64,000 nucleotides of DNA, taken from assembly GCA_964373805.1 (NCBI GenBank), contig CAYJWF010000004.1:1891-65890 (forward strand), read 5' to 3'. Shown in pieces: positions 11,894 to 49,868 of the stretch. Each line of letters starts with the position of its first letter. Positions within the stretch are counted from its first letter, which is position 1. The stretch comes from an uncultured Planctomycetia bacterium. GTDB taxonomy: Bacteria > Omnitrophota > Gorgyraeia > 1-14-0-20-64-10. The notes under the pieces were generated by a model that did not search any database, had not been told where the DNA came from, and was given only the letters and a program-made list of their open reading frames with translations. A program made the position numbers and the translations under genes.

Positions 11894-13057
11894 TTAGAGC
11901 GGCTTCGCCAAAGACTTCCAGCTCAGGACGCGGACGAACCCCCTTGTCTGCTCTTCATCTCCTGCGTGAATCAGGAAAGCCGATCTTGTTGTCCGTTTCG
12001 TGAGCCTCCCCCAATAGAAGAGATTCTTCAGAGAGTCAGGGGTGACGGTTTTCCCCGATTGGATCTCCACGGGGATCTCTCTGGATCCTTCTTGAAGGAT
12101 CAGGTCAACCTCATGGCCAGCCTTGTCTCTCCAGAAATACAGGTGAGGGGTTCGCCCTTGGTGCAGCCGGTGTTTGAGTATCTCGCAGACGACGAAGGTT
12201 TCAAAAAGGGCGCCGCGGAGCGGATGGCTTTTCAGGTGAGAAAGATTTTCAATGCCCAATAGGGAGCACGCCAGGCCGGTATCGGTCAGATACAGCTTTG
12301 GGCTCTTGACGATCTGCTTCTTGAAGTTTTGATGGAAGGGAGGAAGCAGGTAAGCCAGAAAGCTGGCCTCCAGGACGCCCAGCCACGCCCTGGCCGTGTT
12401 GTGCGTGATGCCACAGTCGTTGGCCAGATTGCTCAGGTTGAGGATACACCCCGTTCGGCCGGCGCAGAGCTGGAGGAACCGGTGAAAACTGGGGAGGTCG
12501 TGGACGTTCTTGATCTGCCGGACATCCCGCTCCAGATAGGTGCGGATGTAATCCGGGTACCAGTCGGCAGGCCGCAGCCGCTTGTCGTAGATTCTGGGAT
12601 ACAACCCCTGCAACAGGAGTTCTTCCGCAGAGGGCAGTCTCTTTAAAGTGGGAAGGAGCTCTGAGAGTGAGAATGGCATCAACGTCAGGATCCGCACGCG
12701 CCCGGCAAGGGTCTGAGACAGCTTCTCTAGAAGAAGGAAGTTTTGAGAGCCGGTCAGGATAAATAAGCCTTCCCCCTTATGCGTGTCCACGTGGGTCTGA
12801 AGATAAGAAAACAGCTCCGGGGCCCGCTGCGCCTCATCGAGGATGGCGCCTCCCCCGTATTCCTTGAGGAATCCGCGGGGATCCTGGGTAGCGTACGCCA
12901 ACGTATCCCGGTTTTCCAGAGAGACGTAGGCCTTTTGGGGGAACAGGTTTCGGGCCAGTGTGGTTTTCCCGGATTGCCTCGGTCCCAGGATGGCCACCAC
13001 CGGAAACTTTCTGGCCATCTCCACAATCTTCTTCTGCAAGGTCCTGACGACCATCAC
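11894..13057 (-). CDS. AAA+ ATPase of the COG1373/DUF4143 family
   Basis: Walker A GPRQSGKTTL, Walker B ILDEAQ, C-terminal DUF4143-like region. Confidence 0.7.
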   Translation of the reverse strand: MMVVRTLQKKIVEMARKFPVVAILGPRQSGKTTLARNLFPQKAYVSLENRDTLAYATQDPRGFLKEYGGGAILDEAQRAPELFSYLQTHVDTHKGEGLFILTGSQNFLLLEKLSQTLAGRVRILTLMPFSLSELLPTLKRLPSAEELLLQGLYPRIYDKRLRPADWYPDYIRTYLERDVRQIKNVHDLPSFHRFLQLCAGRTGCILNLSNLANDCGITHNTARAWLGVLEASFLAYLLPPFHQNFKKQIVKSPKLYLTDTGLACSLLGIENLSHLKSHPLRGALFETFVVCEILKHRLHQGRTPHLYFWRDKAGHEVDLILQEGSREIPVEIQSGKTVTPDSLKNLFYWGRLTKRTTRSAFLIHAGDEEQTRGFVRVLSWKSLAKPL

Positions 13058-14264: not shown

Positions 14265-15257
14265 TTACGCCTGGGACCCTATGCCGAGGGACTGCTCCAA
14301 GCCTGCCGCAAGGATCGAGACCAAGTCCGGCGAAACTCCGAAACCCTTCAAGATCGCATCCATCGAGAACAGCTCCTGCGCGAAGTAAAGACGTAGAACA
14401 TCCGCCGCGACCCGAACCGGATAAACATGTTCCAGCGGACCCAAATAAGTAACTCGGGAAAGACCATGGATTTTCTGGAAGGCGGTTGTTACCGCATCCG
14501 GGGATCGCTCCGGAACGTAATGAATCCGCCGATTCTCACCGACAAGTCCTTCGGCCAACTCCGATTCCCCCAGCAGAACCAGCCGCCCGGCAAACCGATC
14601 CAGCCTCCGGAGAACCTGGACCAAATCAGCATCTAACGTAGCGGCATCCAGAACAACCGCCTGAATCCCCTCGACGCTTGCCTCCGCCATCGCAACCGCC
14701 ATCGCAATCCCCCGATCCCCTTCCTCTACGTTTCTGGCTGCGTTAGCGGCCAGTCCAGGAAAGTGCCGCGCATCAGCGCGGCCTTCCTCCAGCCCAGAGG
14801 GATTACTTTCTCCCGTGGTACCTGGTTTCGCCTCCCGCTCTGACCCTGAGAAATTTCTTAACAATCGAGGAAGGAATCCCATCACCTTACCAGGAATAGC
14901 CCCCTCCCCACCCCGCCAGCGGGAGATCGTCTCCCGACTCACCGGCTTCCCGCCGTTGTACCCTGCACCTGCCAGCGCCTGAGCCATCCCTTCCTGCGTC
15001 AACCCCAGCCAATCCATCACCTGGCCAAACTCTGTATCACCAGCGACTTCCGAATCCGCTGCATCCTCCTCCAGCCCGGCGAAGGCAGCGGAGGAGCCTC
15101 TGGACCCCCCTGGAAAAGCCGCCTCCAGCTCAGAGCTGGCGGCACTTTCCAGGCCAGCCTGGGCACGCAGCGCAAGGGCAACGGAAGGCCGAACAAGCGT
15201 TAGAGCCAAGAAAAGCCCCAACGAGCTTCGCCAACGGTCCATTCGTTCTCTTCTCAT
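14265..15257 (-). CDS. secreted hypothetical protein of the GLEE-motif family, with embedded repeat and an HTH-like segment
   Basis: Signal-peptide-like N-terminus; several (A/S)GLE(E/Q) motifs; C-terminal ...ILAAGLEQSLGIGSQA; segment GLTQEGMAQALAGAGYNGGKPVSRETISRW resembles an HTH; carries repeat R1. Confidence 0.45.
   Translation of the reverse strand: MRRERMDRWRSSLGLFLALTLVRPSVALALRAQAGLESAASSELEAAFPGGSRGSSAAFAGLEEDAADSEVAGDTEFGQVMDWLGLTQEGMAQALAGAGYNGGKPVSRETISRWRGGEGAIPGKVMGFLPRLLRNFSGSEREAKPGTTGESNPSGLEEGRADARHFPGLAANAARNVEEGDRGIAMAVAMAEASVEGIQAVVLDAATLDADLVQVLRRLDRFAGRLVLLGESELAEGLVGENRRIHYVPERSPDAVTTAFQKIHGLSRVTYLGPLEHVYPVRVAADVLRLYFAQELFSMDAILKGFGVSPDLVSILAAGLEQSLGIGSQA
14712..14800. 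repeat. R1 repeat element, longest copy, in GLEE-family gene
   Basis: CTCTACGTTTCTGGCTGCGTTAGCGGCCAGTCCAGGAAAGTGCCGCGCATCAGCGCGGCCTTCCTCCAG; includes hairpin CCGCGC-ATCA-GCGCGG. Confidence 0.8.
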
Positions 15258-30463: not shown

Positions 30464-31810
30464 CTACGGCGCGCCATCGAGAACCAGCCTATTCCTCTGA
30501 GCCTCCTCCAGCCCCGCCGCCAGATCCGGCCCCTCCAATCCGGCCCGATCCATAAGGGGCTGCCGTAAGCTCGACTTCCAGCCCTCCTCCAGCCCGGCGG
30601 TGGTGCGCCACTCTTCGATCAACGGTCGAAACAACTCGTAGGAGATCGTGGGGAGATACATGGTAAACGCTCCGAAGGCTAACCCTTCCAAAGGCTGCTC
30701 CTCCGGGTTTTTCCGCGGGGGCCCTGCCTGTCTCCTTGGAAGTTTTCCCCCAAGGCACTGTCCCAAAAAGTAGAGGGCCAAATCCTCTTGAGTCGGAATC
30801 TTCCCTGCCGGCAAAGAGGTCCGACACGACTCGGCCAAATCTCTTAGTTGGGACTCAAAATGTTCGACGTAGCATCGCACAGCCTTCACAAGGATGCTGT
30901 TTCTAGGCTTCCTACCGAGAGAATCGAGCGCACTGGCAACGTGCCCAATAATTCTACGCGGCGAGTCTGTCCTTGATGCGTAAGCCGGATACGCCACTGC
31001 TAGGAGCGGAACATAGTCTTGCCAGGACAAGCCAGCCGGTTTTCTTCGATCATTCAAGAGCGTCCGGAAGACACTCACCACGGTCAACCTTTCAGGCGCA
31101 GGAGGGACATACTTCTGAAGGACCTCTAAACTCACCGGTTCACCGCTCACTTTATAGAAACGGGTCAGGGCATTGGCGGCGTAGGAGAAAGGAAGCCATT
31201 CCCCAGAAGTCAAAGAAACTCCGTTCTCATCCACCAGACGGCCCGCGTCCCTTAACAATCTCATCCGGTACCCAAGGGAATAGGGGGTAGGATTGTTAAG
31301 GAAATAGCGCAGAGCCTCGTGCGGTGTCGCAAAGGTCAATCCCTGTCGTAGCTCCGGAAGGTCAGGAGGCATCCCCCTTCTCCAAAGAATGAAAATCTTC
31401 TTTCCAGGAGGGGTCATGGCCTGCCGACGGGCGTTTTCTTGGTCGACCAGCTCTGGGAGGCGGTGCTTCCAGAGGGTCTCTTGGCTTACGTTAATGGATC
31501 TAGCAAACTCCCTCCGTTTCAGTTGATCTCCTGGGTGCTTCTGAACTCCCTCGATGATCCGTTGATGGGTGCGCTGCCATCGGGGGCCATGGGGTTTTCC
31601 ATCCTCTGCATCCGAATCGGACCCCAGGGCCTCCTCGAGGCCGGCCAGGTCCGGCCGCTGGCGCAGGAAAAACAGGGACGGTTCTTCAAAACACCTTTTG
31701 GTATAGGCGGTTGGGCCGGCACCGCCCCCATGGCCACAGACAGCCTGCGAGCAGGTCAATAGGGTGAGCGTCAACGTCCAAATGAACCGGCGCATGGCGT
31801 GTGAGATCAA
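30464..31810 (-). CDS. secreted hypothetical protein of the GLEE-motif family
   Basis: Signal peptide; AGLEE motifs; C-terminal ...AGLEGPDLAAGLEEAQRNRLVLDGAP; internal HTH-like stretch REFARSINVSQETLWKH. Confidence 0.45.
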   Translation of the reverse strand: MISHAMRRFIWTLTLTLLTCSQAVCGHGGGAGPTAYTKRCFEEPSLFFLRQRPDLAGLEEALGSDSDAEDGKPHGPRWQRTHQRIIEGVQKHPGDQLKRREFARSINVSQETLWKHRLPELVDQENARRQAMTPPGKKIFILWRRGMPPDLPELRQGLTFATPHEALRYFLNNPTPYSLGYRMRLLRDAGRLVDENGVSLTSGEWLPFSYAANALTRFYKVSGEPVSLEVLQKYVPPAPERLTVVSVFRTLLNDRRKPAGLSWQDYVPLLAVAYPAYASRTDSPRRIIGHVASALDSLGRKPRNSILVKAVRCYVEHFESQLRDLAESCRTSLPAGKIPTQEDLALYFLGQCLGGKLPRRQAGPPRKNPEEQPLEGLAFGAFTMYLPTISYELFRPLIEEWRTTAGLEEGWKSSLRQPLMDRAGLEGPDLAAGLEEAQRNRLVLDGAP

Positions 31811-35991: not shown

Positions 35992-36256
35992 GCGTTCCGC
36001 CCTAAAACGGATGCGGGCCGACCAGAAACGTCGGGAGCGAAATTTGGACTTCGCCTCGGAGCTGAAGACGCTGACCAAAAAGTTTCGTGAGCATGTGAAA
36101 AGCGGCGGGGGCCCCCAAACGCAGGAGTTGTTTCGAACGCTGGTCAAACGCCTGGATCAGGCCGCCAGCAAGAAGATCATCCACCGCAACACCGCCTCTC
36201 GGAAACAGGGACGGCTGGCCCGCTCCCTACGGTCCGTTTCAACTTCCAAGACGTAG
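35981..36256 (+). CDS. rpsT: 30S ribosomal protein S20
   Basis: MPNMRSALKRMRADQKRRERN...IIHRNTASRKQGRLAR matches the S20 family. Confidence 0.8.
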   Translation: MPNMRSALKRMRADQKRRERNLDFASELKTLTKKFREHVKSGGGPQTQELFRTLVKRLDQAASKKIIHRNTASRKQGRLARSLRSVSTSKT

Positions 36257-37736: not shown

Positions 37737-38698
37737 GGCTCGAGGGCGCCGGACTGCTCGAGCTCGGTCAGCTTAGCGAGCGCCTGTGGGGCTAAGGAGG
37801 AATCGGGATACCGCTCGACAATCTGTCGATAATAGACCGCGGCGCTGGCCCCCTTCCCCGATCTCTCGTAGAAATGGGCGACTTCCACTAACCCTTCCGC
37901 CTTAAACTCTCGAAGTTTCTTCAAGCTCTCCTTCGCCTCGGGGACCAGCTCGCTCTCGGGGTGACTTTTGATAAAGGTTTCAAACCAGTCGATCGCCTCA
38001 TCGGTGGCCGATTGATCGTAGCTGGGTTTCAAGGAAAGCTGGTAGGCGCAGAAGGCCACGTTGAACTTGGCCTCCTCACCCCAAGGGGAGCTGGGGTATT
38101 CGTCCACCACCTTCTGGAAGGCTCGGCTGGCTTCTTCGTAACGCTTCTGCCTTCGGTAACACTCCCCAAGGCGCAGCTGCGCCTTGGCTCCGTACTCTCC
38201 GTACGGGGCGTTTTTCACCACGTGGCTGTAGATCTCGATCGCCTTATCCAGCGCTGGGAAGGCGACCGGCACCGGATCGATCCACCTCAGGCGTTTCCCG
38301 GAGGCCAGCGTCTCCGCGATCAAGAACTCCCGCTCGATGGCCTCCTTGAATCGGGCCGAGAAGGGGTAGATCTCCACCAGTTTCTTGTAGGCGGCGTACG
38401 CCTCCGCCGTTTTATCGAGAAGCTCGTAGGAGACCCCGGCCAGGTATTGGGCCTCCGGCGCCACTTCCGACCGCGGGAAGGCGCGCACCAACCGCAAGAA
38501 CTCCTTGACGGCCCGGGCGTAGTTGCCCGACTCGAAGAAACCGATCGCCCAATCCATCTGCGCCCGAGGGGTGTCCTTGGCCGCGTACTTCGGGTTCACC
38601 CAGCGTTTGGTCTGCGGAGTCCAAATCCAGACGGCTTGCGCCTCCGAAACCCAGATTCCCATCCAAAGGATCGCGACCATTCCTACGGCTCTTTTCAT
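37733..38698 (-). CDS. bamD: outer membrane protein assembly factor BamD (TPR lipoprotein)
   Basis: Signal peptide plus TPR repeats (YLAGVSYELL..., LRLGECYRRQKRYEEA...) typical of BamD/YfiO. Confidence 0.7.
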   Translation of the reverse strand: MKRAVGMVAILWMGIWVSEAQAVWIWTPQTKRWVNPKYAAKDTPRAQMDWAIGFFESGNYARAVKEFLRLVRAFPRSEVAPEAQYLAGVSYELLDKTAEAYAAYKKLVEIYPFSARFKEAIEREFLIAETLASGKRLRWIDPVPVAFPALDKAIEIYSHVVKNAPYGEYGAKAQLRLGECYRRQKRYEEASRAFQKVVDEYPSSPWGEEAKFNVAFCAYQLSLKPSYDQSATDEAIDWFETFIKSHPESELVPEAKESLKKLREFKAEGLVEVAHFYERSGKGASAAVYYRQIVERYPDSSLAPQALAKLTELEQSGALEP

Positions 38699-38706
38699 CG
38701 GAAATT

Positions 38707-39084
38707 TTACGATACCACAGTTCCCCGTTCAACGAACTCGGCGATGGCACCCCGATCCTCCGGGTCTATCTCCAGGAACTGAATCCCGCACTCGTAAGCC
38801 TCGTTAAAAGGTTTCCGCCGCATCCAGACCACCCGCGCGATAATCCTAAGCGGTTTTAAATCCCTCGGCATGAAGAGGAGCAGCACCAGACGCGCCTCCT
38901 TCGGCAGAAAGTGCGGGGTGATCAAACGGACCCCCGAGGCGCTCAAGTCCTTGGAAAGGGACCCGGAGTACGACTCCTGGGGCTTCAAAACGTTTCGGAA
39001 TTGGACGGCGATCGAGGTCCTCAGGCGTGGAAGGCGACGCCGTTCCGCAAGAGGTTCAGACGTTTCGGAGATAGGTTCCACCAT
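38707..39084 (-). CDS. PilZ domain protein (c-di-GMP binding)
   Basis: RRxxxR (ERRRLPR) and D/NxSxxG (KDLSASGVRL) motifs. Confidence 0.65.
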   Translation of the reverse strand: MVEPISETSEPLAERRRLPRLRTSIAVQFRNVLKPQESYSGSLSKDLSASGVRLITPHFLPKEARLVLLLFMPRDLKPLRIIARVVWMRRKPFNEAYECGIQFLEIDPEDRGAIAEFVERGTVVS

Positions 39085-39097
39085 GCCGAGGACTATT

Positions 39098-40693
39098 TTA
39101 CCACTGAGAACTAGCGAAAGGCCACTGGGCCATCCAGAGAACGAGCTGAGTCAACCCATGCGCCAGCCCCGTAAAGCTGGCGACAAAAGGGGCGGCCAAC
39201 CCTGGATGGATCGCCCCTGCTCCTAACAACCCGATTCCGGTGGCCACCAAAAGCGAGGTCCACGGAACGATGAGGAGATTGGCCAACGGGGCAATGGAGG
39301 TCACCAGATGGAAGTGCCAAGCCACCCAAGGCACCACGGCGACCCAGGCCGCCACGGAAGTGGCCACGGCCTGGGCGATCCACCGCCAGAATCGCCCTTC
39401 GGTGTCCCGTTCGGTGTCAGACACCGAAGCAACTTTTATAAAGATGGTGCAGTGTCTGACACCGTCGGTCAGCAACCTCGCCAACCACGGCGCCAAAACG
39501 AGCAGACCCAGAACCGCCGAAAAGGAAAGCTGAAACCCTGGATCGGCCAACGCTCGAGGACCGACCGAGAGGATCCCCAGCGCCGCCAACCCCAGAAAGT
39601 TGATCTGCGGGTGTTCCCTTCCCCGCCACAAACTTAAGGAAAGCCCGATCCCGGTGATCGTAGCGCGAAGGATGGGGGGATCCGCTCCGGTGAGTAGGCC
39701 GTAGACGGCCAGGATCCCGATCACCATCCCAAAGCGGACAGCGCGCGGGATCCGCAGAATCGTCAATCCTATTCCGGCGATGAATCCGATGAGGCCCACC
39801 TGAAAGCCGCTCACCACCAACACGTGAATCGTCCCGGTCCGGCGAAAGGCTTCCCGCAACGAAGAAGGAATCTCTCCGGGGGTCCCTAGAAGAAGTTCTT
39901 CCAGGTAAGCGGCCTCGAGGGGACCCAGCAGGGAACGGCCAAGCTGTTGAAGCTGCCGCCGAAAGGCCGCCACCCATCGTCGATAACGCACCCAGGGTCC
40001 CCCCATCTGCCCAAGAGACGTCATGGAACTCGGATCCGATACCGTGAGAATTCCACACGCCTCGTTCAGCCAAAGCCAGCGGCGCTCATCCCCCCTCACC
40101 CTTTTCCCTCTCCCCTCAGAGGAGAGGGTGGGGGTAAGGGGCCCACGGATCTCTCCGTGGAGGCGCACCCGGTCCCCGTAAGCCAGCGCGACTCCATACG
40201 TTGGGAGCCGAACCAACACCTTGCCGGAGGCCGGAATCCAGCCGTCCCGCTGCCAAACCTCGGTCAAACGGAGCCACCCTTGCCGACGCGCCGGTCCGGA
40301 GGGAGGTTTGGTCCACTCCACATCGCTGGCCATCACTCCTTTGCAAGTAATGGGCCGCGGTGGCTCTGCTAGGTGACGGGCAATGGAATCGGTCGGCATT
40401 TGGGCATCCACGAAGGCCCGGAAAAATCCGAGGGCTCCGATGAGGAACAAGAGAGCCCCGTTCGCCATCACCGATCGATGCCGAATCCAGTAGTAAATTC
40501 CGGCAACAATTCCGACCCCACCCCCAATCGCCCAGACCGGCGGCTGGATCCACCAGGCCAACCCGATCCCACAGGAAAAAGCTGCGGCCACCGCCGCCAG
40601 GGGCGCCCGATGGGTCGGCTGGCCCCCCGCGTTTTGTTTCGTTGGCGAAGCAAAACGAAACTTGGGGGGCTGGGCAACTGGGGATGGATTCAT
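39098..40693 (-). CDS. comEC: competence protein ComEC/Rec2 (DUF4131 plus competence domain, no beta-lactamase domain)
   Basis: Multi-TM ComEC core; the tracked N-terminus is read through repeat R2 copy D, so the true start is probably further in. Confidence 0.7.
   Translation of the reverse strand: MNPSPVAQPPKFRFASPTKQNAGGQPTHRAPLAAVAAAFSCGIGLAWWIQPPVWAIGGGVGIVAGIYYWIRHRSVMANGALLFLIGALGFFRAFVDAQMPTDSIARHLAEPPRPITCKGVMASDVEWTKPPSGPARRQGWLRLTEVWQRDGWIPASGKVLVRLPTYGVALAYGDRVRLHGEIRGPLTPTLSSEGRGKRVRGDERRWLWLNEACGILTVSDPSSMTSLGQMGGPWVRYRRWVAAFRRQLQQLGRSLLGPLEAAYLEELLLGTPGEIPSSLREAFRRTGTIHVLVVSGFQVGLIGFIAGIGLTILRIPRAVRFGMVIGILAVYGLLTGADPPILRATITGIGLSLSLWRGREHPQINFLGLAALGILSVGPRALADPGFQLSFSAVLGLLVLAPWLARLLTDGVRHCTIFIKVASVSDTERDTEGRFWRWIAQAVATSVAAWVAVVPWVAWHFHLVTSIAPLANLLIVPWTSLLVATGIGLLGAGAIHPGLAAPFVASFTGLAHGLTQLVLWMAQWPFASSQW
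40612..40665. repeat. R2 hairpin repeat copy D at the comEC 5' end
   Basis: CCCCCCGCGTTTTGTTTCGTTGGCGAAGCAAAACGAAACTTGGGGGG. Confidence 0.7.
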
Positions 40694-40984
40694 CGGCTAT
40701 CTTGTGCCTCTCGGCTTTGGTGGAGTGGCCAACGACATAAGTTGCCCAGCCTCTCGGAGGGGGAAACCACTGCCTGGTTCCCGGCCGCCTCACCGTCTCG
40801 GCGGCGTCGCCAAGCGTGGGCTCGTTCTTCCTCGCCCGGCGACCCCCCTCCGGGCTCCCCTATCCGGCAAAGGCTATCGGTTTCATGGGGGAGAGTTTCC
40901 CACTCGGGGGGAAGTCCGTTTCCTTCCGCACGCCCATAGACCCCCTCTCTCCAGAGGAATCGACTGACCCCATTTGTCTTTGCC

Positions 40985-41374
40985 TCAATCAAAGCGGACC
41001 AGCCCCTTGAGCCTCGACAGCATCTTGGAGGTGATCCCTTTGACTCGCTTCAAATCGACCAAGGTCAGATACCGGCCGTGGCGCTTCCGATCCTCCACCA
41101 TCCGCCTCGCCAACACCGGACCGATTCCCGGTAAACCAACCAATTCGGCGGCGGTGGCGGAATTGACCCGAACCTGCAGCTGAACAAAGGGCCTCTGGGG
41201 GGCCGTCGGCAGCCCCAAACCCAGCAGGGCGAGACCGACAAGGCTCGCCCCACCGATAAACCCCAGGGCCATCCTCTCCTGCCGGGTGAAGATTCCCTCC
41301 AAGAATCGCCTCATATGGGATATTGGCAACATATCAAAAAATATTATAATAATGAAATATGGAACAATCAACAA
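40985..41374 (-). CDS. comEA: competence protein ComEA (helix-hairpin-helix DNA-binding)
   Basis: C-terminal HhH pair (AAELVGLPGIGPVLARRMV...GITSKMLSRL); real start probably the Met near 41314. Confidence 0.7.
   Translation of the reverse strand: MLIVPYFIIIIFFDMLPISHMRRFLEGIFTRQERMALGFIGGASLVGLALLGLGLPTAPQRPFVQLQVRVNSATAAELVGLPGIGPVLARRMVEDRKRHGRYLTLVDLKRVKGITSKMLSRLKGLVRFD
41323..41350 (+). promoter_or_regulatory. sigma70-like promoter (TTGGCA-N16-TATAAT) in the AT-rich comEA / phd-relE divergent region
   Basis: TTGGCAACATATCAAAAAATATTATAAT; ~100 nt upstream of the phd start. Confidence 0.45.
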
Positions 41375-41457
41375 AAACGTTCCTTGAAAAGCGGCCCAAA
41401 ACCTGCTAAGCTTATTTATGGCTATGAAAATAGCGCTGTTATAGGGAGGGTCTTGCT

Positions 41458-41727
41458 ATGAAGATGATCAACACGGTGGAACTTAAAAATCACACCAACG
41501 AGGTTCTTCGTCAGGTCCATCGGGGGCACCCCATCGCTGTCACCCGGCACGGGAAACCGTATGCGGCGGTTATCCCTTTAACGGAGGAAAGCCTTGAGGA
41601 TTTGATGTTTGAATACAGTCCCCGTCTACGCCATCTCATTGCGGAGGCGGAAGCAGATGTGAGAGCTGGACGACTCGTCCCATGGGAGAGTTTCCTCAAC
41701 CATGAGCGAAGGCGCAAGACCTCTTGA
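41458..41727 (+). CDS. Phd/YefM-family antitoxin
   Basis: 89 aa; HGKPYAAVIPLTEESLEDL Phd pattern; overlaps the downstream toxin gene. Confidence 0.75.
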   Translation: MKMINTVELKNHTNEVLRQVHRGHPIAVTRHGKPYAAVIPLTEESLEDLMFEYSPRLRHLIAEAEADVRAGRLVPWESFLNHERRRKTS

Positions 41728-41992
41728 GCTTCTTCTGACCCCCCACGCAGAGGCGGATCTCCTTCGCCTATCCACCGACCTGCGGCAAAGGTTAAAGGAA
41801 GACGTCCTGCGCCTCACTCAGGCCCCAATCCCATTTCGACAACTGAAGAAGCTCCGAAGCTTCAACCCTCCCATTTGGCAACTCACCTCAGGCCGTTTCC
41901 GGATTCTCTATCGTCGAGAAGAAGGGAGGCTGCTGATTCTCCGAGTGGTCGCTAAGCCGGACCAAAAAGATCTCTTCCGCTCTCTGCGCTAA
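41702..41992 (+). CDS. RelE/ParE-family toxin
   Basis: 96 aa; ...RFRILYRREEGRLLILRVVAKPDQKD... typical RelE/ParE C-terminus. Confidence 0.75.
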   Translation: MSEGARPLELLLTPHAEADLLRLSTDLRQRLKEDVLRLTQAPIPFRQLKKLRSFNPPIWQLTSGRFRILYRREEGRLLILRVVAKPDQKDLFRSLR

Positions 41993-44900
41993 GCGGACCG
42001 ATCGGGTAGGGTCACCTGCTCCAGGCCGGTCGCCGTGTAGTGGCCCACGTCCACAAGGAAAGTCTGCTCTCCAGAGAAGAGGGCGTTGATCACCACCTCT
42101 TCCAGCCTCTCCCAGGGTAACCGAAGGGATTCCTTCTGGCCACCTTCAGATTCAGGCCGCCGGAGGATTTGGATGATGCGGTAGCCTTCCTTCTCGAGAA
42201 GGCTCTTTTCCGAGAGAAGGCCCAGTTGAAAGCTGCGGCCCTCTTCTTCCGGATACCGATATCTCTTCAGGAGCCTCTTCGTCAAGCCGAGCAACCGAAT
42301 CAAAATCCCCTCCTGCCGAGGTTCCGAGAATCCCACCGGAATCGCTGGGTCCTCGAGCAGTTCCGGATCAAACAGGACCGCCAGCATAGGCGACCCCCTC
42401 ATCGCTTGCAGAACGAGATGGTCCCGTTCCGACCATTCCTGCCCAGGACGCGGCAGTATCAACTCGAGGAGTTGCGCCATATCCGAATGAACCGGCGCCG
42501 AAGAAGCTGTGCCGAGTCCCATCGAAAGGGTATCGTAGGGACCGATCCCCCTGCGAACCTGCACGGTGAGGAGATCAGGCCATAAGGAGGCTCCTCCATA
42601 TGACCGCGACGGGACATGAATGACTGAGGGGTCGTCGGTAAAACGACCTTGCGTGCCTGGATCCAAGATAGCCTCAGGGTGAAGGACGAGCGAAAGGGTA
42701 CGCTCCGCCTGATTGTAGGAGAGATCTTGGAGGATAAATCCATCCTGAGTATCCATAGTCCAGTCCCATCTCCGGACAGCTTCATCTGAGACGAGGCTTC
42801 CCCATAGGATGGTGAACTGACGCGTTGGGGTGTAATAAGGCACGGGTTCTTCTTTAATCTTCAGGCCGTCCACACCGCCTTTGCCGAGGATGCGAAGATC
42901 AGGCCCAGAGGTGGCGGTCTCTATGCGAAGAAGATCGTCCTCCGTACAGAAGATGTACGTTGGCAACTTCCGCTCGGTTCCTGTAAGCAAATTGGGACGA
43001 CCGGCATACCGAATCCCATTCCCCGGCCTTTGCAACAGATCCCGATAATACGTCGACCCCTCCTCCAGGCCGGTGCTAGGTGATGGTGAAGAATCCTCCC
43101 CCAACGGAGCCGCGGAACCGATATCGGGGCGAAAGCCAAGGTCTCGAAAGAGACGTTCGTACTGGTTCACCACAAACCGGTACGATATCCAATTTGGCAC
43201 AGCGAGATTGGGATCGGTTCCTGAAGCCCGGAGGGCGTGCCCGATCTGTCCGCAGAGGTCCCTGATCCTTCTGGCCAGAGCGGCTGTCTGCCTTGCAGTG
43301 GGCTTATAACGGGTCCTGTTCAAGCCTCGGTAAACTGCCTCGTCCGCTGCAAGGGCCGCCAACGAATCCAACAGCCTCGTAAGTCCTTCCTGTAAGAGAA
43401 CCTGGAGTTGAGCTCGCTGCTGCCTGTCGGTGGAGGCATTCAGATCCTTGATGAGCCTCCTGAACGTGGGAATCCCGTCAAGCCTAAACCCTGCCTCTGT
43501 CTCTCTTCGCCTCTTTTGAAGAAAACTGAGAAAGGAAAGCCGCATCTTCGACGCATCCTTCGAACCTTGAGCTAAGCGAAAGGCAACTCCATTGATCGCC
43601 ACTTCGCTGATCATGGCCGCTGCGGGAATTCCCGCTCCCTGGACCAATCTCTTCACGGAGCGACTGGGATTAAGAAGCGCCATGGAAAGACGAGGCCCCT
43701 CAAGAAACGGATGGCCCGGAAATCCTTCAACGATCGCAGCGAGTTGCTTTTCCTTGGATGGGAACCGGCCCTCCAAACCAAAAACGATCAACCCTCCAAG
43801 CGCACGGAGGATCATGGGAGCAGCTTCACGGAGAAACCGTCTGGCCTCTCCAGGCGCACCGGCTAAACCAATGACCAAGATCCTTCGATCCCTTTCCAAC
43901 TCAACCCGAAATCGGTCCCGTTGCCCAAGCTCAGCATCCAGGCGCACCTCGTCAAATCGAATCGGCTGGCCCAGGCGCGAGGTAGCCCGCTCCTCCCATT
44001 TCTCCAGCTCCCCCATCAATCGGACCAAATCCTTGGGTCTCCATTCCTGCGCACGCCAACCGTTCAACACCTCCAAGCCCTTGACCCGCTTCAACCGTTC
44101 CTCCAGGCCGGCCCCTTCGATTCGCCCTTCGGGCTCCCTCAGGCTAAGCCTGAGCGATTCTGCCGAAGGGCCGGTGGATGGTGCCGTGGAATCCTGGTAT
44201 ACTAGAGGTAGATAAAAATCTCCAACGGACAACGAGGGACGTTGGTGCGCTTCTTGACCAACGCGGGTACCATCATCTTGGGAGGGCTGATTGTTGGGCC
44301 TTTCTTTGGACAACAACCATTCCGACCTCACATGTGCGTGATCGGTTGGTTTCTGTACGGCACCGTATTTAGCCTGGCCCTTTGGCTCAGTCCAACTGGA
44401 AAGGAGGAGCCGTGATGGAAGGGATTTGGTTTGGTTACCTGGCGGTTGGAACGTTGATCGTGGTAGCCCTGGTACTTGGTTGCTTGGATCGGAAATCTCG
44501 CCGGCACGAGAAACAGACCCATTAATCCATCCCCTGCCTTCCTCTAAACCTGCCCTCAACGAATCCGCAGGACGACCGGTAGCCGGATCGAGCGCACGAT
44601 CCATCCGCTGATAGGCAATATCGTTCGACCCTATGCGGCCAATATCTGCATTCCAAAACTCCCACCATTTCGGGTCCACCATGGCCCACAGGCCTTCTGC
44701 ACCCGGGGTAACCGCACGGCCCAGCACATAAGTCATCTCTTGAGTCTGCATCGCTTGGCCCAGCCCTTTTGCTTTCTTGGCCACGGCTCCTCTTGCCTTC
44801 GCCATAATCTTTCGAGATAACCCCTCATCCACCAATCCCCCTAGTGGGACAAAGGCCGAGGTTCCAAGAGGTTCTATCAAGGAGTCCGACAAGGCCATTC

Positions 44901-45396
44901 TCTTTAAGTTACGATCTAGGTGGACAATCCGAAACAGTAAACCGTTTCCCGCGTAGTCTGTTGGGAGCCGGAAGAAGGGAAATTCTTTAAAGTAGAGGTG
45001 TAAGTGAATCCACCAGTCGCCTCCTGCTCCTTTGACCAAATGGTCTTGAAGAGGCGCGTCCTCGAAACCAATGTATAAACTGGATCCACCGTGTTCCTTT
45101 ATCTGGCTCTTTAGGTGCTCCCGAACCAAACGCCTTACCCGGTCGACGTGTCGCTCCTCCAGGCCAACGGCCGAAGCAGAAGAGGAACCCAGCAGGGCGG
45201 CGGTGAGCTCCTGCTCCTCTAGGCCGGAGTCCTTGGTTTGGATCTTGCGAAGCCCCAAGGCTGGACTAGGCAGGGCGAGGTTCATGGATAGAAAAAGGGC
45301 CGCCACTCGGGGGAACAAATAAGCTCGTCTCATCGGGTTTGCCTGTTTCGGTTCAAGTATACCCAACGAGGTCCGGTAAGTCAATAGTATAGTCAA
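41989..45396 (-). CDS. large secreted hypothetical protein (about 1115 aa) of the GLEE-motif family
   Basis: Likely start MRRAYLF... near 45334, after a TTGACT-N17-TATACT promoter; signal peptide; many (S/A/T/V)GLEE motifs; C-terminal domain ...EQTFLVDVGHYTATGLEQVTLPDRSA shared with ORF 46863..47141; no known catalytic domains recognised. Confidence 0.6.
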   Translation of the reverse strand: MTILLTYRTSLGILEPKQANPMRRAYLFPRVAALFLSMNLALPSPALGLRKIQTKDSGLEEQELTAALLGSSSASAVGLEERHVDRVRRLVREHLKSQIKEHGGSSLYIGFEDAPLQDHLVKGAGGDWWIHLHLYFKEFPFFRLPTDYAGNGLLFRIVHLDRNLKRMALSDSLIEPLGTSAFVPLGGLVDEGLSRKIMAKARGAVAKKAKGLGQAMQTQEMTYVLGRAVTPGAEGLWAMVDPKWWEFWNADIGRIGSNDIAYQRMDRALDPATGRPADSLRAGLEEGRGWINGSVSRAGEISDPSNQVPGLPRSTFQPPGNQTKSLPSRLLLSSWTEPKGQAKYGAVQKPTDHAHVRSEWLLSKERPNNQPSQDDGTRVGQEAHQRPSLSVGDFYLPLVYQDSTAPSTGPSAESLRLSLREPEGRIEGAGLEERLKRVKGLEVLNGWRAQEWRPKDLVRLMGELEKWEERATSRLGQPIRFDEVRLDAELGQRDRFRVELERDRRILVIGLAGAPGEARRFLREAAPMILRALGGLIVFGLEGRFPSKEKQLAAIVEGFPGHPFLEGPRLSMALLNPSRSVKRLVQGAGIPAAAMISEVAINGVAFRLAQGSKDASKMRLSFLSFLQKRRRETEAGFRLDGIPTFRRLIKDLNASTDRQQRAQLQVLLQEGLTRLLDSLAALAADEAVYRGLNRTRYKPTARQTAALARRIRDLCGQIGHALRASGTDPNLAVPNWISYRFVVNQYERLFRDLGFRPDIGSAAPLGEDSSPSPSTGLEEGSTYYRDLLQRPGNGIRYAGRPNLLTGTERKLPTYIFCTEDDLLRIETATSGPDLRILGKGGVDGLKIKEEPVPYYTPTRQFTILWGSLVSDEAVRRWDWTMDTQDGFILQDLSYNQAERTLSLVLHPEAILDPGTQGRFTDDPSVIHVPSRSYGGASLWPDLLTVQVRRGIGPYDTLSMGLGTASSAPVHSDMAQLLELILPRPGQEWSERDHLVLQAMRGSPMLAVLFDPELLEDPAIPVGFSEPRQEGILIRLLGLTKRLLKRYRYPEEEGRSFQLGLLSEKSLLEKEGYRIIQILRRPESEGGQKESLRLPWERLEEVVINALFSGEQTFLVDVGHYTATGLEQVTLPDRSA
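45366..45394 (-). promoter_or_regulatory. sigma70-like promoter (TTGACT-N17-TATACT) for the 1135-aa GLEE-family gene
   Basis: Minus-strand sense TTGACTTACCGGACCTCGTTGGGTATACT, ~25 nt upstream of the ATG near 45334, inside an AT-rich island. Confidence 0.5.
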
Positions 45397-45521
45397 CTTT
45401 AATTACCACTAAAAGTCGGGAGCCGGCTGCTCCCACCCCCAGCGTCCCCTTTAAGAAACCATTGACAGGGTTACAATAATAGTTATACTATAATTGCATA
45501 GGATGCATAGGAGGTGAGGCT

Positions 45522-46826
45522 GTGCCTATTCGCAGAGACCTGCTGGATCGGATCGGTCCCTTCCTTAAACGGAAGGAGTTTTTGGCGATCGTGGGCCCCC
45601 GGCAGGCGGGGAAGACGATCTTTCTGGAGCTGTTGGGAGCGTATCTGAACGAAAATTTACACGTCCCAAAGGAGCGAATCCAGAACATCACGTTTGAGGA
45701 CCGCCGGCTGCTGGCCGAATTTGAGCGGGACCCTGTTCCCTTCATCCAATCGTATCTGCCGACTAAGGTTCCCCCATCCTTCACCTTGATGATCGATGAG
45801 TTTCAATACGCCCGGGAAGGCGGACAGAAGTTGAAGCTGATCTACGATACGGTTCCCGGGATCAAGGTGATCGTAACCGGGTCCTCCTCCTTGGAGCTCA
45901 AGGCTCAAGTCGGAAGGTATATGGTCGGAAGGATCTTGAACTTCAACCTCTGGCCTTTTCATTTCGGCGAGATTTTAAGAGCCCGTTCTCCCCGGTTGGA
46001 GAGGGTTTACGACCAACGGAATGAATCCCTTCTGCGATGGCTTAAAGAGGGAAAGCCGGTCCCCATGACGCCTGGTCCGGATGGATTCCGTGAGGAGATG
46101 AGGCCCCTCTTTGAAGAGTACTGCATCTGGGGCGGCTATCCGGCGGTGGTCTTGAGCGAAGGACAGGAGGAACGAAAGAAGGTCCTGGCGGAGATTTACA
46201 ACAACTACATTCTCAAGGACATCAAGACCCTGTTGGAATTGGCCACGGAAGAGAAGCTGTACCGGCTGGCTCAAGTATTGGCTACCCAGATCGGGGATCT
46301 CGTGGTTTACCAACATCTCAGTCAGGCATCCGACCTGGATTACCGGAATTTAAAGAAGCATCTGACCATCCTCACGCAGACCTTTATCACCCAGCAGCTC
46401 CGTCCCTTCTTTAAGAACCGACAGAAGGAGCTGGTCAAAAATCCAAAGATCTTTTTCCTGGACCTGGGATTTCGCAATACCTTGACGGAGAACATGAACC
46501 GGTTGACGACGCGGCCAGATGCCGGGGCGATGGTAGAGAACGCGGTGTGGATCCGGCTTCATGGGCTGTTTGAGGGAACGGAGAAGATCAATTTCTGGAG
46601 AACCAAGGCCGGTGCGGAGGTCGATTTCGTTCTTCATCTTGCCGACCGCCTCCTCCCCATGGAAGTAAAATACAGCCCCTCGGCTGGGGAAAAACTCCCC
46701 AGGGGCTTGGCCAGTTTTATCGAACAGTTTCATCCCCCCGCCGCCTTGGTCCTGACGAAAGATTCCTGGGGCCGGATGAAACGGGGCAAGACCTCCATCC
46801 TGTTCGCCCCGGTCTACTATCTTTAG
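45522..46826 (+). CDS. AAA+ ATPase of the COG1373/DUF4143 family (second copy)
   Basis: Walker A GPRQAGKT, DEFQ Walker B, C-terminal DUF4143-like region; preceded by TTGACA...TATAAT-like promoter and a GGAGGTGA Shine-Dalgarno. Confidence 0.7.
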   Translation: MPIRRDLLDRIGPFLKRKEFLAIVGPRQAGKTIFLELLGAYLNENLHVPKERIQNITFEDRRLLAEFERDPVPFIQSYLPTKVPPSFTLMIDEFQYAREGGQKLKLIYDTVPGIKVIVTGSSSLELKAQVGRYMVGRILNFNLWPFHFGEILRARSPRLERVYDQRNESLLRWLKEGKPVPMTPGPDGFREEMRPLFEEYCIWGGYPAVVLSEGQEERKKVLAEIYNNYILKDIKTLLELATEEKLYRLAQVLATQIGDLVVYQHLSQASDLDYRNLKKHLTILTQTFITQQLRPFFKNRQKELVKNPKIFFLDLGFRNTLTENMNRLTTRPDAGAMVENAVWIRLHGLFEGTEKINFWRTKAGAEVDFVLHLADRLLPMEVKYSPSAGEKLPRGLASFIEQFHPPAALVLTKDSWGRMKRGKTSILFAPVYYL

Positions 46827-46862
46827 AGAATCCACCCGTTCTCTCCAGGGGTTAACTCTGCT

Positions 46863-47141
46863 TTACGCGAACCAATCGGTGAGGAGCTTCAGGGTCTCGG
46901 GCAGGGTCATTTCTTCCAACCCGGCCCGATACGCAGCAACGTCCACCAGGAAGGTATCCTGTCGGTGAGCCAAGGCCTCGGCCACCACCCACGGCACCGC
47001 CGACTCCGGAAGGGGCCCAGCTTTAGTCCCTGGTGTTCGTCGTACCTCGATCACCCGAAAGCCAGTCTCCTCAAGCCCTGCCCTCTCATGAAGCAGACCC
47101 AGTTGAAGCTCACCCTCAGGCCATGAGAAAACGGCCTGCAC
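46863..47141 (-). CDS. stand-alone copy or fragment of the GLEE-family C-terminal domain (92 aa)
   Basis: LQLGLLHERAGLEETGFRVIEV...VPWVVAEALAHRQDTFLVDVAAYRAGLEEMTLPE aligns with the last ~85 aa of the 1135-aa protein; GTG start with a weak RBS; may be a gene remnant. Confidence 0.35.
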   Translation of the reverse strand: MQAVFSWPEGELQLGLLHERAGLEETGFRVIEVRRTPGTKAGPLPESAVPWVVAEALAHRQDTFLVDVAAYRAGLEEMTLPETLKLLTDWFA

Positions 47142-47303
47142 GTTCCCCGTTAAACCGATCAGGTGGATCTGCTTCTCCTCTAAACCACCTCCAGTAACAC
47201 ATCTTACTGAAGGGACCCCCGTGGAGAGAAAACCTGTTCACTTCCTCACCCACGGGATGTCTAAAAAGTGTCGTAGCTTATTCAGTACCTCGGAGAACCT
47301 CTT

Positions 47304-49868
47304 TTAAACGACGAGGCTGATGAGGCGGTTGGGGACGACAATCACCTTCTTCGGCGGCTTGCCATCCAACCAGCGTTGAACGTTGGGATCCTGAAGAACC
47401 TTGGCCTTCAGCTCCTCCTCTTGAGAGCCAACCGGGACCGTCAGATGGGAGCGGACCTTGCCGTTGACCTGCACGACCAGGGTCACCTGCGACTCCTGGA
47501 GGAGGGCAGGATCGTAGGTTGGCCAAGGAGCCTTGGCCAACATCTCCTGGTGGCCCAGCCGTTCCCACAGCTCCTCGGCCAGGTGAGGGGCAAGGGGGTT
47601 TAAAAGCCGGGCCAGCGTCTCGATGGCTTCCTTTCTCTGCCCATCGGAAAGCTGAGGAAAAATCCTCTCCAGGGAGTTCCGATACTCCATCAGGGCGCTG
47701 ATCGCCGTGTTGAACTTGAAGCTCTCCAGATCCTCGGTGACCCGCTTGATCGTCGCGTGGGTGAGGCGCTTAAGCTCACCATCCGATGGAAAACCTGATG
47801 GGGTCAGACCCCTTGGGGTCTGACCCCTTTGACCCTCCACCAAGTTCCAGACCCGATTCATGAACCGCCAGATGCCGTCGATGGCGCTGTCGTTCCATTC
47901 CAGTTGATCCTCCGGGGGAGCGGCGAAAAGGATGAAGAGTCTTAAGGCATCGGCCCCGTACTTGGCGATCACTCCCTCCGGATCGACCACGTTCCCCTTG
48001 GATTTGGACATGACCTCGCCATCCTTCAAAACCATTCCCTGAGTCAAGAGGCGAGAAAACGGCTCTGAGATTGTAAGGAGCCCTAGATCCCGCAGGAACT
48101 TGGTGAAGAAACGGGAATACAGGAGATGCAGGATGGCGTGCTCGATCCCACCGATGTACTGGTCCACCGGCATCCAGAAGGCGGCCTCTTGGGAATCAAA
48201 CGCAGTGGCGGCCGCTTTCGGGGCCGCGTGCGGCTTCGGGGAACAGAACCGCAGGAAGTACCACGAGGAGTCGAAGAAGGTGGCTATGGTGTCGGTCTCT
48301 CGACGGGCCGGTTGCCGACATTTGGGACAGGGCGTCTCCACAAAGGCCTTGACCTTGGCCAACGGTGAGCCCCCGGCTCCTGTGATTGAAACCTTGGGCG
48401 GCAAGGTGACCGGCAACTGGTTCTCAGGAACCGGCACGGTCCCGCAACGGGAGCAGTAAACGATCGGGATGGGAGTCCCCCAGTACCGCTGTCGAGAGAT
48501 GAGCCAATCCCGAAGCCGCCAATGGGTCGTCCGCTGGCCAAATCCATTCTCCTCCATCCAGGCGGCGATCTTTCCCTTACCCTCTTGACTAGACAGACCA
48601 TTAAACTGGGCGGAGTTGACCTGGATCCCTTCCCCTTCGAAGGCCTCTTTCCATCGGCTGGGATCAGGGACAGTCCCCGAAGCTTGCCCTGAGCTTGTCG
48701 AAGTGGGAGACGGTCCCTGAGGAGGCTGGATCACGACTCGGATCGGAAGTCGATGTTCCTTGGCGAACAGAAAATCCCGCTGATCGTGCGCCGGGACCGC
48801 CATGATCGCCCCGGTGCCGTACTCCATGAGGACATAATCGGCCACCCAGATCGGGATTGCCTCTGCGTTCACCGGGTTGATGGCCATCCGCCCGGTGAAA
48901 ATCCCCTCCTTCTTTCTATCGGCGGCGGTCCGGACCTCTCTGGGCTGGCGCTTCACCCGATCGATGAAGGCCCGAACCTGGGGCCCTTTAGGGTTACCTT
49001 GAAGAAGCTCCTCGACGACCGGATGTTCTGGCGCCAAAACGACGTAGGTGGCGCCAAAGATCGTGTCCGGCCGGGTGGTAAAGACCGGAAGTTTTGTCGA
49101 GCTGTTCTGAATGGAAAATTGGATCCGAACCCCTTGGCTCTTCCCGATCCAGTTCCGTTGCATGGTTAAGACACGCTCCGGCCAGCGGCCCAAGGTATCC
49201 AGGTCCTGCAGGAGTTCCTCCGCATACGCGGTGATTTTCAAGAACCACTGCTCCAACTCCTTCGGCTCCACGGCGGTTCCACAGCGCCAGCAGCCGTCTT
49301 GGACCACCTCCTCGTTGGCCAGGGTCGTCTGACAACTGGGACACCAGTTGACCGTGGCTCCGGCCCGATAGGCGAGGCCCTTCTCGAACATCTTGAGGAA
49401 GATCCACTGGTTCCATCGGTAATAGTCCGGCTGGCAGGTCACCACCTCTCGATTCCAGTCGTAGGAGAATCCCAAACGTTTCAAGCCGGTTCGCACCTCT
49501 CCGATGCACCGGAAGGTCCACTCGGCCGGATCCACCTTCTGTTTGATCGCCGCGTTCTCCGCCGGCTGGCCAAAGGCATCGAATCCCGTGGGATGAAGGA
49601 CCCGGTACCCCTGGGCCATCCGAAACCGGGCCAGGACGTCGCCGATCGTGTAGTTCCGGACATGCCCCATGTGGAGGCGCCCCGAGGGATAGGGGAACAT
49701 TTCCAGGAGGTAATATTTTCCTCTTCCGGTGTCTGGCACCGACCCGACCTTTGGCTCCTTCGGGGTGCCTGACACCGGTGTGGCCTGGAAGATCTTCGCC
49801 TCTTCCCACCGCCGCTGCCACTTTTCTTCGATTTCTTGAAATGGGTAAGCCATCGTCGGAAAAGCCAT
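47304..49868 (-). CDS. leuS: leucyl-tRNA synthetase
   Basis: HIGH (HMGHVRN) and KMSKS motifs; 854 aa; carries two in-frame repeat insertions. Confidence 0.95.
47798..47830. repeat. two tandem P1 palindromes inside leuS
   Basis: GATGGGGTCAGACCCCTTGGGGTCTGACCCCTTT; encodes [12 protein letters not shown]. Confidence 0.85.
48655..48700. repeat. R3-related segment inside leuS coding sequence
   Basis: ...GCTTGCCCTGAGCTTGTCGAAGTGGGAG...; in frame; encodes part of the [14 protein letters not shown] linker in LeuS. Confidence 0.5.

Follow-up and report, generated by a model that had tools for sequence, protein, structure and literature searches.

Does a short peptide motif that recurs in a few apparently exported bacterial proteins identify them as one protein family, or does the motif have a role of its own? 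The question is raised by a 64,000-nt stretch of genomic DNA from an uncultured bacterium (contig CAYJWF010000004.1, positions 1,891 to 65,890; hereafter the window), in which four open reading frames (ORFs) are rich in the tetrapeptide GLE[EQ]. The original prediction regarded these ORFs, which exist as it stated, as an uncharacterized secreted family with a common C-terminal domain, recurrently adjacent to COG1373/DUF4143 ATPases. The analysis presented here leads to a different picture. The GLEE proteins, as far as can be judged from their sequences, are a class defined by a shared grammar and not one homologous family; they would be exported modular proteins, and it is somewhat favoured that their motif is read by a dedicated extracytoplasmic factor, preferably an endoprotease. 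The four ORFs are as follows, HMM standing for hidden Markov model and C1 for a C-terminal domain described below.

41989..45333, minus strand: the big GLEE-class gene, 1114 aa from ATG 45333; its ORF is open from TTG 45396 (1135 aa)
14265..15257, minus strand: second GLEE-class protein, 330 aa, with a typical leader (leader HMM E=7e-13), ending in Ala
30464..31810, minus strand: third GLEE-class protein, 448 aa, with a likely start at 31795 (MRRFIW) and an atypical leader
46863..47237, minus strand: 5'-truncated C1 copy, a 124-codon open frame whose sole start codon is GTG 47141 (92 aa)

The GLE[EQ] motif

The richness in GLE[EQ] that had been predicted is borne out by counting. The four ORFs (2,005 aa) hold 14 copies, while 0.14 are expected from composition, an enrichment of about 100-fold, and the other ~17,987 aa of probable window proteins (non-overlapping gene set) hold 0. 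A six-frame scan of the window found 18 GLE[EQ] tetrapeptides, 14 of them inside the four ORFs. Each ORF has a copy 8-15 residues from its C-terminus, as had also been noticed, and the residue preceding the Gly is A, S, T or V. A logo of 122 motif instances shows P at position -3, A at -2 and A (61%), S or T at -1, followed by G-L-E-E; the upstream flank is P/S/T/A-rich and linker-like, and the downstream flank is not conserved. The motif is likewise restricted to leader-bearing ORFs in related loci, where A, M, I or V is tolerated at the L position in some proteins. Its codons vary between instances (GGC/GGG/GGT, CTG/CTA/CTT/TTA/TTG and GAG/GAA) and match genome codon usage, and the flanking DNA differs from instance to instance, which points to selection on the peptide, not on the DNA.

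No match to the four ORFs was obtained in Pfam, NCBIfam, PADLOC, PHROGs or PDB sequences. The helix-turn-helix-like stretches reported in the 14265 and 30464 proteins had been noted by eye, and they find no counterpart in Pfam or NCBIfam at E<=0.1 or among PDB sequences. A literature search for the GLEE motif, its leader or Omnitrophota sorting signals returned no description, and the leader-plus-punctuation grammar of this Omnitrophota sub-lineage is undescribed.

A common leader

In an alignment of 24 proteins (A1), the leader is built in a constant order, namely a basic n-region, a hydrophobic core, a conserved PxPAxALR and, 3-12 residues on, [SA]GLE[EQ], with a second [AV]GLEE usually 10-25 residues past the first motif. 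In nearly all members one or two [AS]GLE[EQ] lie no more than about 10-35 residues from where the signal peptide is predicted to end; a motif at a short fixed distance past the predicted signal peptide, on many unrelated proteins, was found in 24 leaders. The n-regions contain 2-5 K/R, and the 12-residue cores, with a mean Kyte-Doolittle value of 1.8-2.1, are followed by PALG/LR or VALA/LR; judged by hydropathy, these N-termini are compatible with a Sec signal peptide. A search of 15,150 six-frame ORFs of 92 loci with a leader HMM matched only GLEE-class ORFs, one match being a second GLEE-class protein in locus L086 that uses AGIEE and AGMEE. This leader is absent from the window's other exported proteins (BamD, LptE, DUF3313). 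A word-indexed search with the leader profile gave 4 weak matches, a 60-residue profile being underpowered against 5.8 billion sequences.

Modules of the big protein and their borders

The likely start of the big protein is the internal ATG 45333 (MRRAYLF), at which the public gene call P0001 also begins; residue numbers below are those of the 1135-aa ORF. Its parts are arranged in the order leader, domain A, module B, module C, two unassigned regions and C1.

45151..45333, minus strand: leader, aa 22-82, with basic n-region, hydrophobic core, LPSPALGLR, SGLEE and VGLEE
45214..45225, minus strand: GLEE motif 1, aa 58-61, within the leader
45154..45165, minus strand: GLEE motif 2, aa 78-81, at the junction of leader and domain A
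44587..45150, minus strand: domain A, aa 83-270, with the signature WWIHLHL / NGLLFR
44539..44550, minus strand: GLEE motif 3, aa 283-286, at the junction of domain A and module B
44098..44550, minus strand: module B, aa 283-433, Q/P/S/H-rich, with GLEE at both borders
44098..44109, minus strand: GLEE motif 4, aa 430-433, at the junction of modules B and C
43552..44052, minus strand: module C, aa 449-615, matching aa 410-578 of P0008
43060..43071, minus strand: GLEE motif 5, aa 776-779, past a P/S-rich linker
41992..42459, minus strand: C1 domain, aa 980-1135, predicted alpha/beta
42016..42027, minus strand: GLEQ motif 6, aa 1124-1127, 8 residues before the C-terminal Ala

With the big protein as query, a word-indexed search returned nothing but its own entry (P0001), and an exhaustive phmmer search found 33 further proteins, each matching a different segment: aa 22-90 (leader), 84-244 (domain A), 273-437 (module B), 449-615 (module C) or 980-1132 (C1). 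Nearly all of these 33 relatives have the same leader and 2-7 motifs. The module borders that homology sets without reference to the motif (at query ranges 84-244, 273-437 and 449-615) coincide with the placement of the motif, as four of the six motifs of the 1135-aa protein (at aa 58, 78, 283, 430, 776 and 1124) lie at ends of phmmer-defined segments. Domain A is present in 16 copies across 13 related proteins, and 11 of the 16 start with the motif. Its AlphaFold2 (AF2) model is a predicted alpha+beta structure (pLDDT 84.8, pTM 0.83) with no significant match among PDB folds, in which GLEE lies in low-confidence coil and the first helix begins two residues later. Homologues of module B, which is apparently disordered, occur in P0004, P0005 and P0009 (two copies) at 35-40% identity, always between two GLEE-type motifs.

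The C1 domain and its probable relic

C1 is a domain of ~150 residues that begins right past AGLEE and usually ends in ...AGLEE-x-TLPEILxxLTDLFA (alignment A2). Its AF2 model is alpha/beta (pLDDT 79, pTM 0.73) with a disordered GLEQ tail, and has no significant fold match in the PDB; on this model, C1 is one optional C-terminal alpha/beta module. It is rare, with 9 profile matches among 5.8 billion proteins and 4 loci in one metagenome scan. Comparison of C1 homologues shows the motif where other copies differ (GGLEERGYR vs AFEGEGYR; AGLEEVTLP vs LNLKGITLP), and its presence at positions that hold unrelated residues in homologues suggests repeated gain, not inheritance.

Among the four window ORFs, only the big protein and the 92-aa ORF have C1. 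The alignment between the two that had been reported is sound (aa 1046-1132 of the big protein, 43% identity, BLASTP E=3e-16), but the weaker C-terminal similarity claimed for the 14265 protein is not, since hhalign of the C1 alignment gave a probability of 0.2% with that protein (and 0.1% with the 30464 protein), and BLASTP of the big protein against the 14265 protein finds similarity in the leader only (E=3e-4). A C-terminal domain shared across the supposed family is thereby reduced to two ORFs of the four.

The second of these is most likely a 5'-truncated relic, the 3' remnant of another C1-bearing gene, as its sequence suggests. The frame is open for 32 codons upstream of 47141, where it aligns to C1 and holds a third GLEE and no ATG, GTG or TTG, and LeuRS ends 67 bp upstream of the open frame. 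The N-terminal 'VAVLFDPEL' part of C1 is absent from the relic, and the initial third of the domain is missing from the 92-aa ORF. The relic does keep the canonical final helix ...PEILxxLTDLFA, a helix lost from the C1 of the big protein. The C1 of L088, a contig syntenic with part of the window, is 44% identical to the relic vs 33% to the C1 of the big protein. The motifs of the relic lie at the following positions.

47175-47186, minus strand: GLEE motif of the relic
47067-47078, minus strand: GLEE motif of the relic
46911-46922, minus strand: GLEE motif of the relic, with the canonical tail ...TLPETLKLLTDWFA

Silent or fragmentary cassettes had been suspected, and a fragmentary C1 copy does exist. 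A silent cassette is unlikely, as the two C1 copies of the window are 62% identical in DNA over 256 aligned nt and the longest word they share is 10 nt. Stand-alone C1 proteins in metagenomes were not taken as support for free-standing C1 genes, at least P0010 being an internal-Met call within a 370-aa leader-bearing ORF of L088.

The 14265 and 30464 proteins

The motifs of the two other GLEE-class proteins are at the following positions.

15144-15155 (GLES), 15066-15077, 14784-14795 and 14292-14303, minus strand: motifs of the 14265 protein
31631-31642, 30584-30595 and 30503-30514, minus strand, and GLEG at 30530-30541: motifs of the 30464 protein

The C-terminal domain of the 14265 protein differs from C1. 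A second type of C-terminal domain is common to P0020 and P0029 (E=4e-22), and the match of the 14265 protein to P0032 (E=0.03) is at most suggestive of this type. The 30464 protein has no BLASTP match to the big and 14265 proteins. A module at its aa 76-141 is present in two copies in the protein encoded by L088:177-1289 (tblastn E=6e-11), and the pair PxPAxALR...GLEE is kept in the 30464 protein though detached from the hydrophobic core.

A single homologous family is rejected on these comparisons, as, apart from leader and motif, BLASTP finds no similarity between any of the three full-length proteins of the window. What is left of the predicted secreted modular family is that its members are apparently exported and modular and that their motif is non-random; common descent is not, the modules being unrelated.

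Relatives and exchange of modules

The closest matches of the window's LeuRS (57-61% identity) are Omnitrophota metagenome-assembled genomes, and the window, which encodes three GLEE-class proteins and one gene relic, belongs to a high-GC member of the Omnitrophota. The ~30 metagenomic relatives with the GLEE grammar are apparently all high-GC Omnitrophota: G+C is 58-66% in all loci carrying the motif proper, and one leader-bearing relative has the NCBI label Candidatus Omnitrophica. The LeuRS neighbourhoods of 80 genomes, ~15 of them Omnitrophota, contain no GLEE-rich ORF, and the lack of such ORFs in the ~15 Omnitrophota neighbourhoods confines the class to a sub-lineage. The cargo of the relatives is diverse and includes Fic domains (P0016, P0018), PALP with ribulose-phosphate epimerase (P0019), a TrmB-like methyltransferase (P0032), tetratricopeptide repeats (P0020) and a helix-hairpin-helix domain (P0011).

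The contig L088 (12 kb, Joint Genome Institute) is syntenic with window positions 25619-45396, and its genes for ComEA, ComEC, PilZ, BamD, LptE, HolA, MurJ, UvrC, MGMT, PrfB and SecA match those of the window at 49-81% identity. At the position of the big gene it has L088:177-1289, a 370-aa protein composed of the leader, PTGLEE, two 30464-type modules, AAGLEE and C1. A ParE/Phd toxin-antitoxin pair, a COG1373 gene and a 30464 gene between MGMT and prfB, all present in the window, are missing from L088. The comparison suggests that leader and C1 have been retained at this position while the middle modules were swapped, and that GLEE genes come and go among conserved housekeeping genes.

At L085:576-2478, L086:9572-11623 and L087:339-965, and also at L082:5220-7956, C1-bearing GLEE genes have an ORF6N-domain gene and comM (Mg-chelatase-like) downstream, an arrangement that probably represents orthologous synteny. 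A Peptidase_M48 gene lies divergently upstream of the GLEE gene of L086 and is the sole protease seen adjoining any GLEE gene.

A distant relative, P0025 (L090:7583-15571; also L091), is a 2662-aa protein of a 43% G+C genome that shares domain A and is punctuated by R[AS]ELR. It has 15 E[LI]R vs 1.6 expected, confined to that ORF and absent from adjoining genes. The R[AS]ELR motif was sought in the Omnitrophota LeuRS loci and not found there.

How the motif might be used

The grammar of the class consists of a dedicated leader and unrelated cargo modules, joined by linkers rich in P/S/T/A with [AST]-G-[LMAI]-E-[EQ] at their ends, the last motif standing 2-15 residues ahead of a C-terminal Ala. 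The precursors would be exported via Sec, and the motif would then be met by a dedicated extracytoplasmic factor. If this factor were an endoprotease cutting at or beside the motif, each fragment released by cleavage at A|GLEE would end in Ala, as the native C-terminus does. Such cuts might remove a short leader propeptide and release or activate the modules in the fashion of a polyprotein. Over evolutionary time the modules are traded between paralogues and between orthologous positions. We infer export by Sec, recognition by a dedicated factor and cleavage from sequence features; the enrichment, the leader, the siting of the motif at junctions, the modular build, the confinement to one lineage and the lack of a conserved link to COG1373 are direct observations. 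Among the possible factors, an endoprotease is preferred because the motif stands at linker ends, a small residue precedes its Gly, and the products of A|GLEE cuts would share the native C-terminal Ala; the different motif R[AS]ELR in the distant 43% G+C relative is what a co-evolving protease-substrate pair would be expected to produce. Endoproteolytic maturation at the motif, taken by itself, is given clearly less than an even chance.

Several points weigh against exported proteins whose motif is read and cut. The window contains no candidate protease or receptor, nor does one appear as a conserved neighbour. Motifs are found within folded modules, e.g., ERGGLEERGYR in C1 and RRAGLEERLIVLP in another C-terminal domain, and cutting there would destroy the domain, so that some copies of the motif are unfit to be cleavage sites; conversely, the domain junction between Rpe and PALP of P0019 is free of the motif. 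The leader of the 30464 protein is atypical and is missed by the leader HMM. PLP-enzyme and methyltransferase cargo is unusual in exported proteins, and many of the phmmer relatives are fragments on short contigs. The C-terminal Ala (AA, FA, LA, SA or QA) speaks in favour, as it ends 16 of 24 leader-bearing proteins vs 3 of 57 other window proteins, but the counts are phylogenetically non-independent, although the C-terminal domains concerned are mostly unrelated.

The alternative that survives best, a tentative one, is that leader and motif stay uncleaved and together act as a multivalent signal for sorting or targeting, for docking to a surface receptor or outer-membrane translocator or for delivery into prey or host. 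The position of the motif shortly past the predicted signal peptide in nearly all members would suit such a signal, as would the retention of the PxPAxALR...GLEE pair in the 30464 protein despite its detachment from the core. Multiple copies per protein would confer avidity, intradomain motifs would be harmless, and effector-like Fic domains and nucleic-acid-related modules are among the cargo, in a phylum considered predatory or host-dependent (10.1101/2023.11.21.568195). However, an uncleaved signal leaves the siting at linker ends, the small residue before Gly and the C-terminal Ala unexplained, no translocator or receptor has been identified for it, and its resemblance to the RxLR and PEXEL leaders of eukaryotic pathogens, considered below, is an analogy only. 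More speculatively, the proteins, as a large and rapidly shuffling repertoire that high-GC Omnitrophota would export, Fic and nucleic-acid-directed modules included, might be written in a punctuated code, in which a shared targeting leader and AGLEE cleavage marks would allow a protease to produce separate effectors or surface modules, possibly delivered to prey or host, with R[AS]ELR used by other lineages.

It is improbable that the motif has no dedicated reader and reflects a habit of this lineage at linker ends or helix caps, spread by duplication and shuffling of a few ancestral junctions. Shuffling is indeed frequent, the motif stands just ahead of a helix in the model of domain A, and the tolerance of A, M, I or V for L would fit a loose habit; but the ~100-fold enrichment is strictly limited to leader-bearing proteins, the motif arises where homologues hold unrelated residues, and its coupling to a special leader and to the C-terminal Ala would be left without explanation.

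Still more doubtful, and largely refuted here, is a feature at the DNA level, i.e., a cassette recombination junction (the 92-aa ORF being a silent cassette), an in-frame repeat or an internal Shine-Dalgarno-like GGAGG at which ribosomes would pause or restart. GAGGAG resembles a Shine-Dalgarno sequence, a gene caller began P0010 at an ATG just past GLEE-R in L088, the genome has in-frame repeat elements, one of them directly past a GLEE, and the C1 relic lacks a promoter-proximal start. Against this, the Gly and Leu codons vary freely and the use of Glu codons is near the genome average, flanking DNA is unconserved, V, M and L are not enriched past the motif, the C1 copies have 62% nucleotide identity and no common word >10 nt, and a repeat search gave no family containing the motif itself. 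A phage or mobile-element identity of the GLEE ORFs was rejected, as the PHROG scan of the four ORFs gave no match, a scan of IMG/VR viral contigs gave no C1 relatives, and housekeeping genes lie on either side.

Least probable of all is that the GLEE proteins act together with the adjoining COG1373/DUF4143 ATPases: two of the four GLEE ORFs do flank 45522..46826 and a third lies 1.2 kb from 11894..13057, but no AAA_14/DUF4143 neighbour is present in any of six related GLEE-class loci (L083-L088, five of which carry C1), even the syntenic L088, three related loci have ORF6N and ComM downstream instead, the ATPases match a single-gene defence candidate (PDC-S01), and the ATPase is cytoplasmic while the GLEE proteins have export leaders.

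Neighbouring genes and repeats

The ATPase genes concerned, whose recurrent adjacency was part of the original prediction and fails that prediction's own test of conservation in the six loci, are listed here together with a toxin-antitoxin pair; the 'S' in PADLOC PDC-S01 is what we take to mark a single-gene candidate.

45522..46826, plus strand: AAA_14 + DUF4143 (COG1373) ATPase, flanked by the big gene and the C1 relic (Pfam; PDC-S01 E=7e-79)
11894..13057, minus strand: AAA_14 + DUF4143 (COG1373) ATPase 1.2 kb from the 14265 gene (Pfam; PDC-S01 E=1e-104)
41458..41992, plus strand: Phd/YefM-ParE toxin-antitoxin pair between the big GLEE gene and comEA

Immediate adjacency is correct for the first ATPase and not for the second, which is separated from the 14265 gene by a repeat-bounded block of ~1.1 kb (13133-14281). 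Its repeats are one of 25 nt (13133-13157 and 14257-14281), a hairpin repeat of 46 nt whose copies at 13172-13217 and 14138-14183 are 98% identical, and an internal one of 29 nt. The block, which also holds a 104-aa ORF (13570-13884) faintly matching a PBECR2-like nuclease, may represent a small mobile or duplicated unit. The toxin-antitoxin pair lies on the opposite strand from the big GLEE gene, with a 4-nt overlap at the stop codon of that gene. Adjacency within the window is best explained by GLEE genes, toxin-antitoxin pairs and defence candidates filling the same variable gaps between housekeeping genes.

Otherwise the window is ordinary chromosome, with genes for CysRS, ClpC, McsAB, LysRS, SecA, prfB, UvrC, HolA, LptE, BamD, ComEC/ComEA and LeuRS and two tRNAs. 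The prfB gene has the canonical RF2 +1 frameshift site CTTTGAC at 30022-30028 (minus strand), and thus spans about 30100 to 28990, not merely the listed 287-aa ORF. A c-di-GMP-I riboswitch at the window end (63753-63865, plus strand; 36.6 bits, slightly over the gathering score) adjoins, on the opposite strand, a 1059-aa exoprotein gene with a TPS (two-partner secretion) domain (60408-63587, minus strand); the gene regulated by the riboswitch probably sits past the window end.

The genome also contains short repeats within genes. A 68-nt repeat, with copies 69-87% identical, is found in four ORFs (8722-8789, 14714-14781, 17518-17585 and 26184-26251), which encode an unannotated 504-aa protein, the 14265 protein (directly past SGLEE), a McsA-like protein and SecA. 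It is translated as about GRADARHFPGLAANAARNVEEGD in three of them and in a different frame in SecA, and resembles the Rickettsia palindromic elements, a kind of repeat inserted in frame. The palindrome GGGGTCAGACCCC occurs at 2123-2152, 3622-3651 and 47790-47834, and the palindrome GGTACCAGGTACC at 33392-33437, 24266-24306, 17982-18012, 23682-23735 and 63801-63841. These short palindromic repeats are intergenic and also lie in frame within CysRS, the 3145-4245 gene, LeuRS, UvrC and Lnt; the element in UvrC coincides with an insertion of 6 residues when compared with the syntenic relative, and that in LeuRS is placed in a variable loop.

Comparison with known systems

The PEXEL motif (RxLxE/Q/D) of exported Plasmodium proteins is cut by a dedicated protease. 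The RxLR-EER motif of oomycete effectors is also cut by a dedicated protease (PMC11754927). GLEE proteins resemble the bearers of RxLR-(d)EER and PEXEL in that a short motif stands some tens of residues at most past a signal peptide, in their case a predicted one, on many otherwise unrelated, modular and fast-evolving proteins. They differ in that RxLR and PEXEL are eukaryotic, unrelated to GLEE in sequence and present in the leader only, whereas GLEE is found again at junctions inside the protein and close to its C-terminus.

As with the YSIRK and KxYKxGKxW signal peptides, LPXTG/sortase, PEP-CTERM/exosortase and the C-terminal domain of the type IX secretion system (T9SS), the tag would mark an exported subset of proteins for a dedicated pathway regardless of cargo; no Pfam or NCBIfam model of these signals matched. 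Unlike the sortase, exosortase and rhombosortase signals, the last GLE[EQ] precedes 2-15 mostly polar residues in place of a membrane helix with a basic tail, and has no NCBIfam match. The C-terminal domain of T9SS is a beta-sandwich of ~80-100 aa, whereas the model of C1 is alpha/beta, and C1 has no Pfam or NCBIfam match. Repetition of the tag within the protein sets GLEE apart from bacterial sorting signals in general.

Polyprotein precursors are known among exported bacterial proteins: the gingipains RgpA and Kgp of Porphyromonas, which carry a T9SS C-terminal domain, are cut by themselves at Arg or Lys. Like them, the GLEE proteins would combine in one exported precursor several modules that defined short sites set apart, but they have no protease module. 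The silent cassettes of Borrelia vls and Neisseria pilS require long near-identical DNA tracts. The C1 relic is similar to these in being a promoterless, 5'-truncated partial copy near a full-length gene, and dissimilar in the 62% identity of the C1 copies. A comparison within the phylum is with the giant Omnitrophota proteins (10.1101/2023.11.21.568195), which are also large, modular, exported, mostly unannotated and suspected of being cleaved. Those proteins exceed 30,000 aa and have many transmembrane segments and C39/S8 peptidase domains (10.1101/2023.11.21.568195), whereas the GLEE proteins have 300-2,000 aa, no peptidase domain and an explicit repeated motif.

Implications for the Omnitrophota

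The Omnitrophota are widespread, uncultivated and probably predatory or host-dependent, and their large surface proteins are almost wholly unannotated. Even if the motif were merely a linker habit, the earlier claims of a family and of a COG1373 connection would still be corrected. The leader HMM, AGLEE and the C-terminal Ala together form a grammar that could select the exported or effector repertoire from metagenomes, divide the proteins into modules for structure prediction, provide testable cleavage or sorting sites and point to the protease or receptor that would read them. For large Omnitrophota proteins, cleavage has been proposed, with the cleavage points stated to be unknown (10.1101/2023.11.21.568195). 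If the proteins are in fact written in a punctuated code, the GLEE class would be a bacterial counterpart of RxLR and PEXEL leaders combined with polyprotein processing, and large Omnitrophota proteins would gain their first predicted cleavage points from its motifs.

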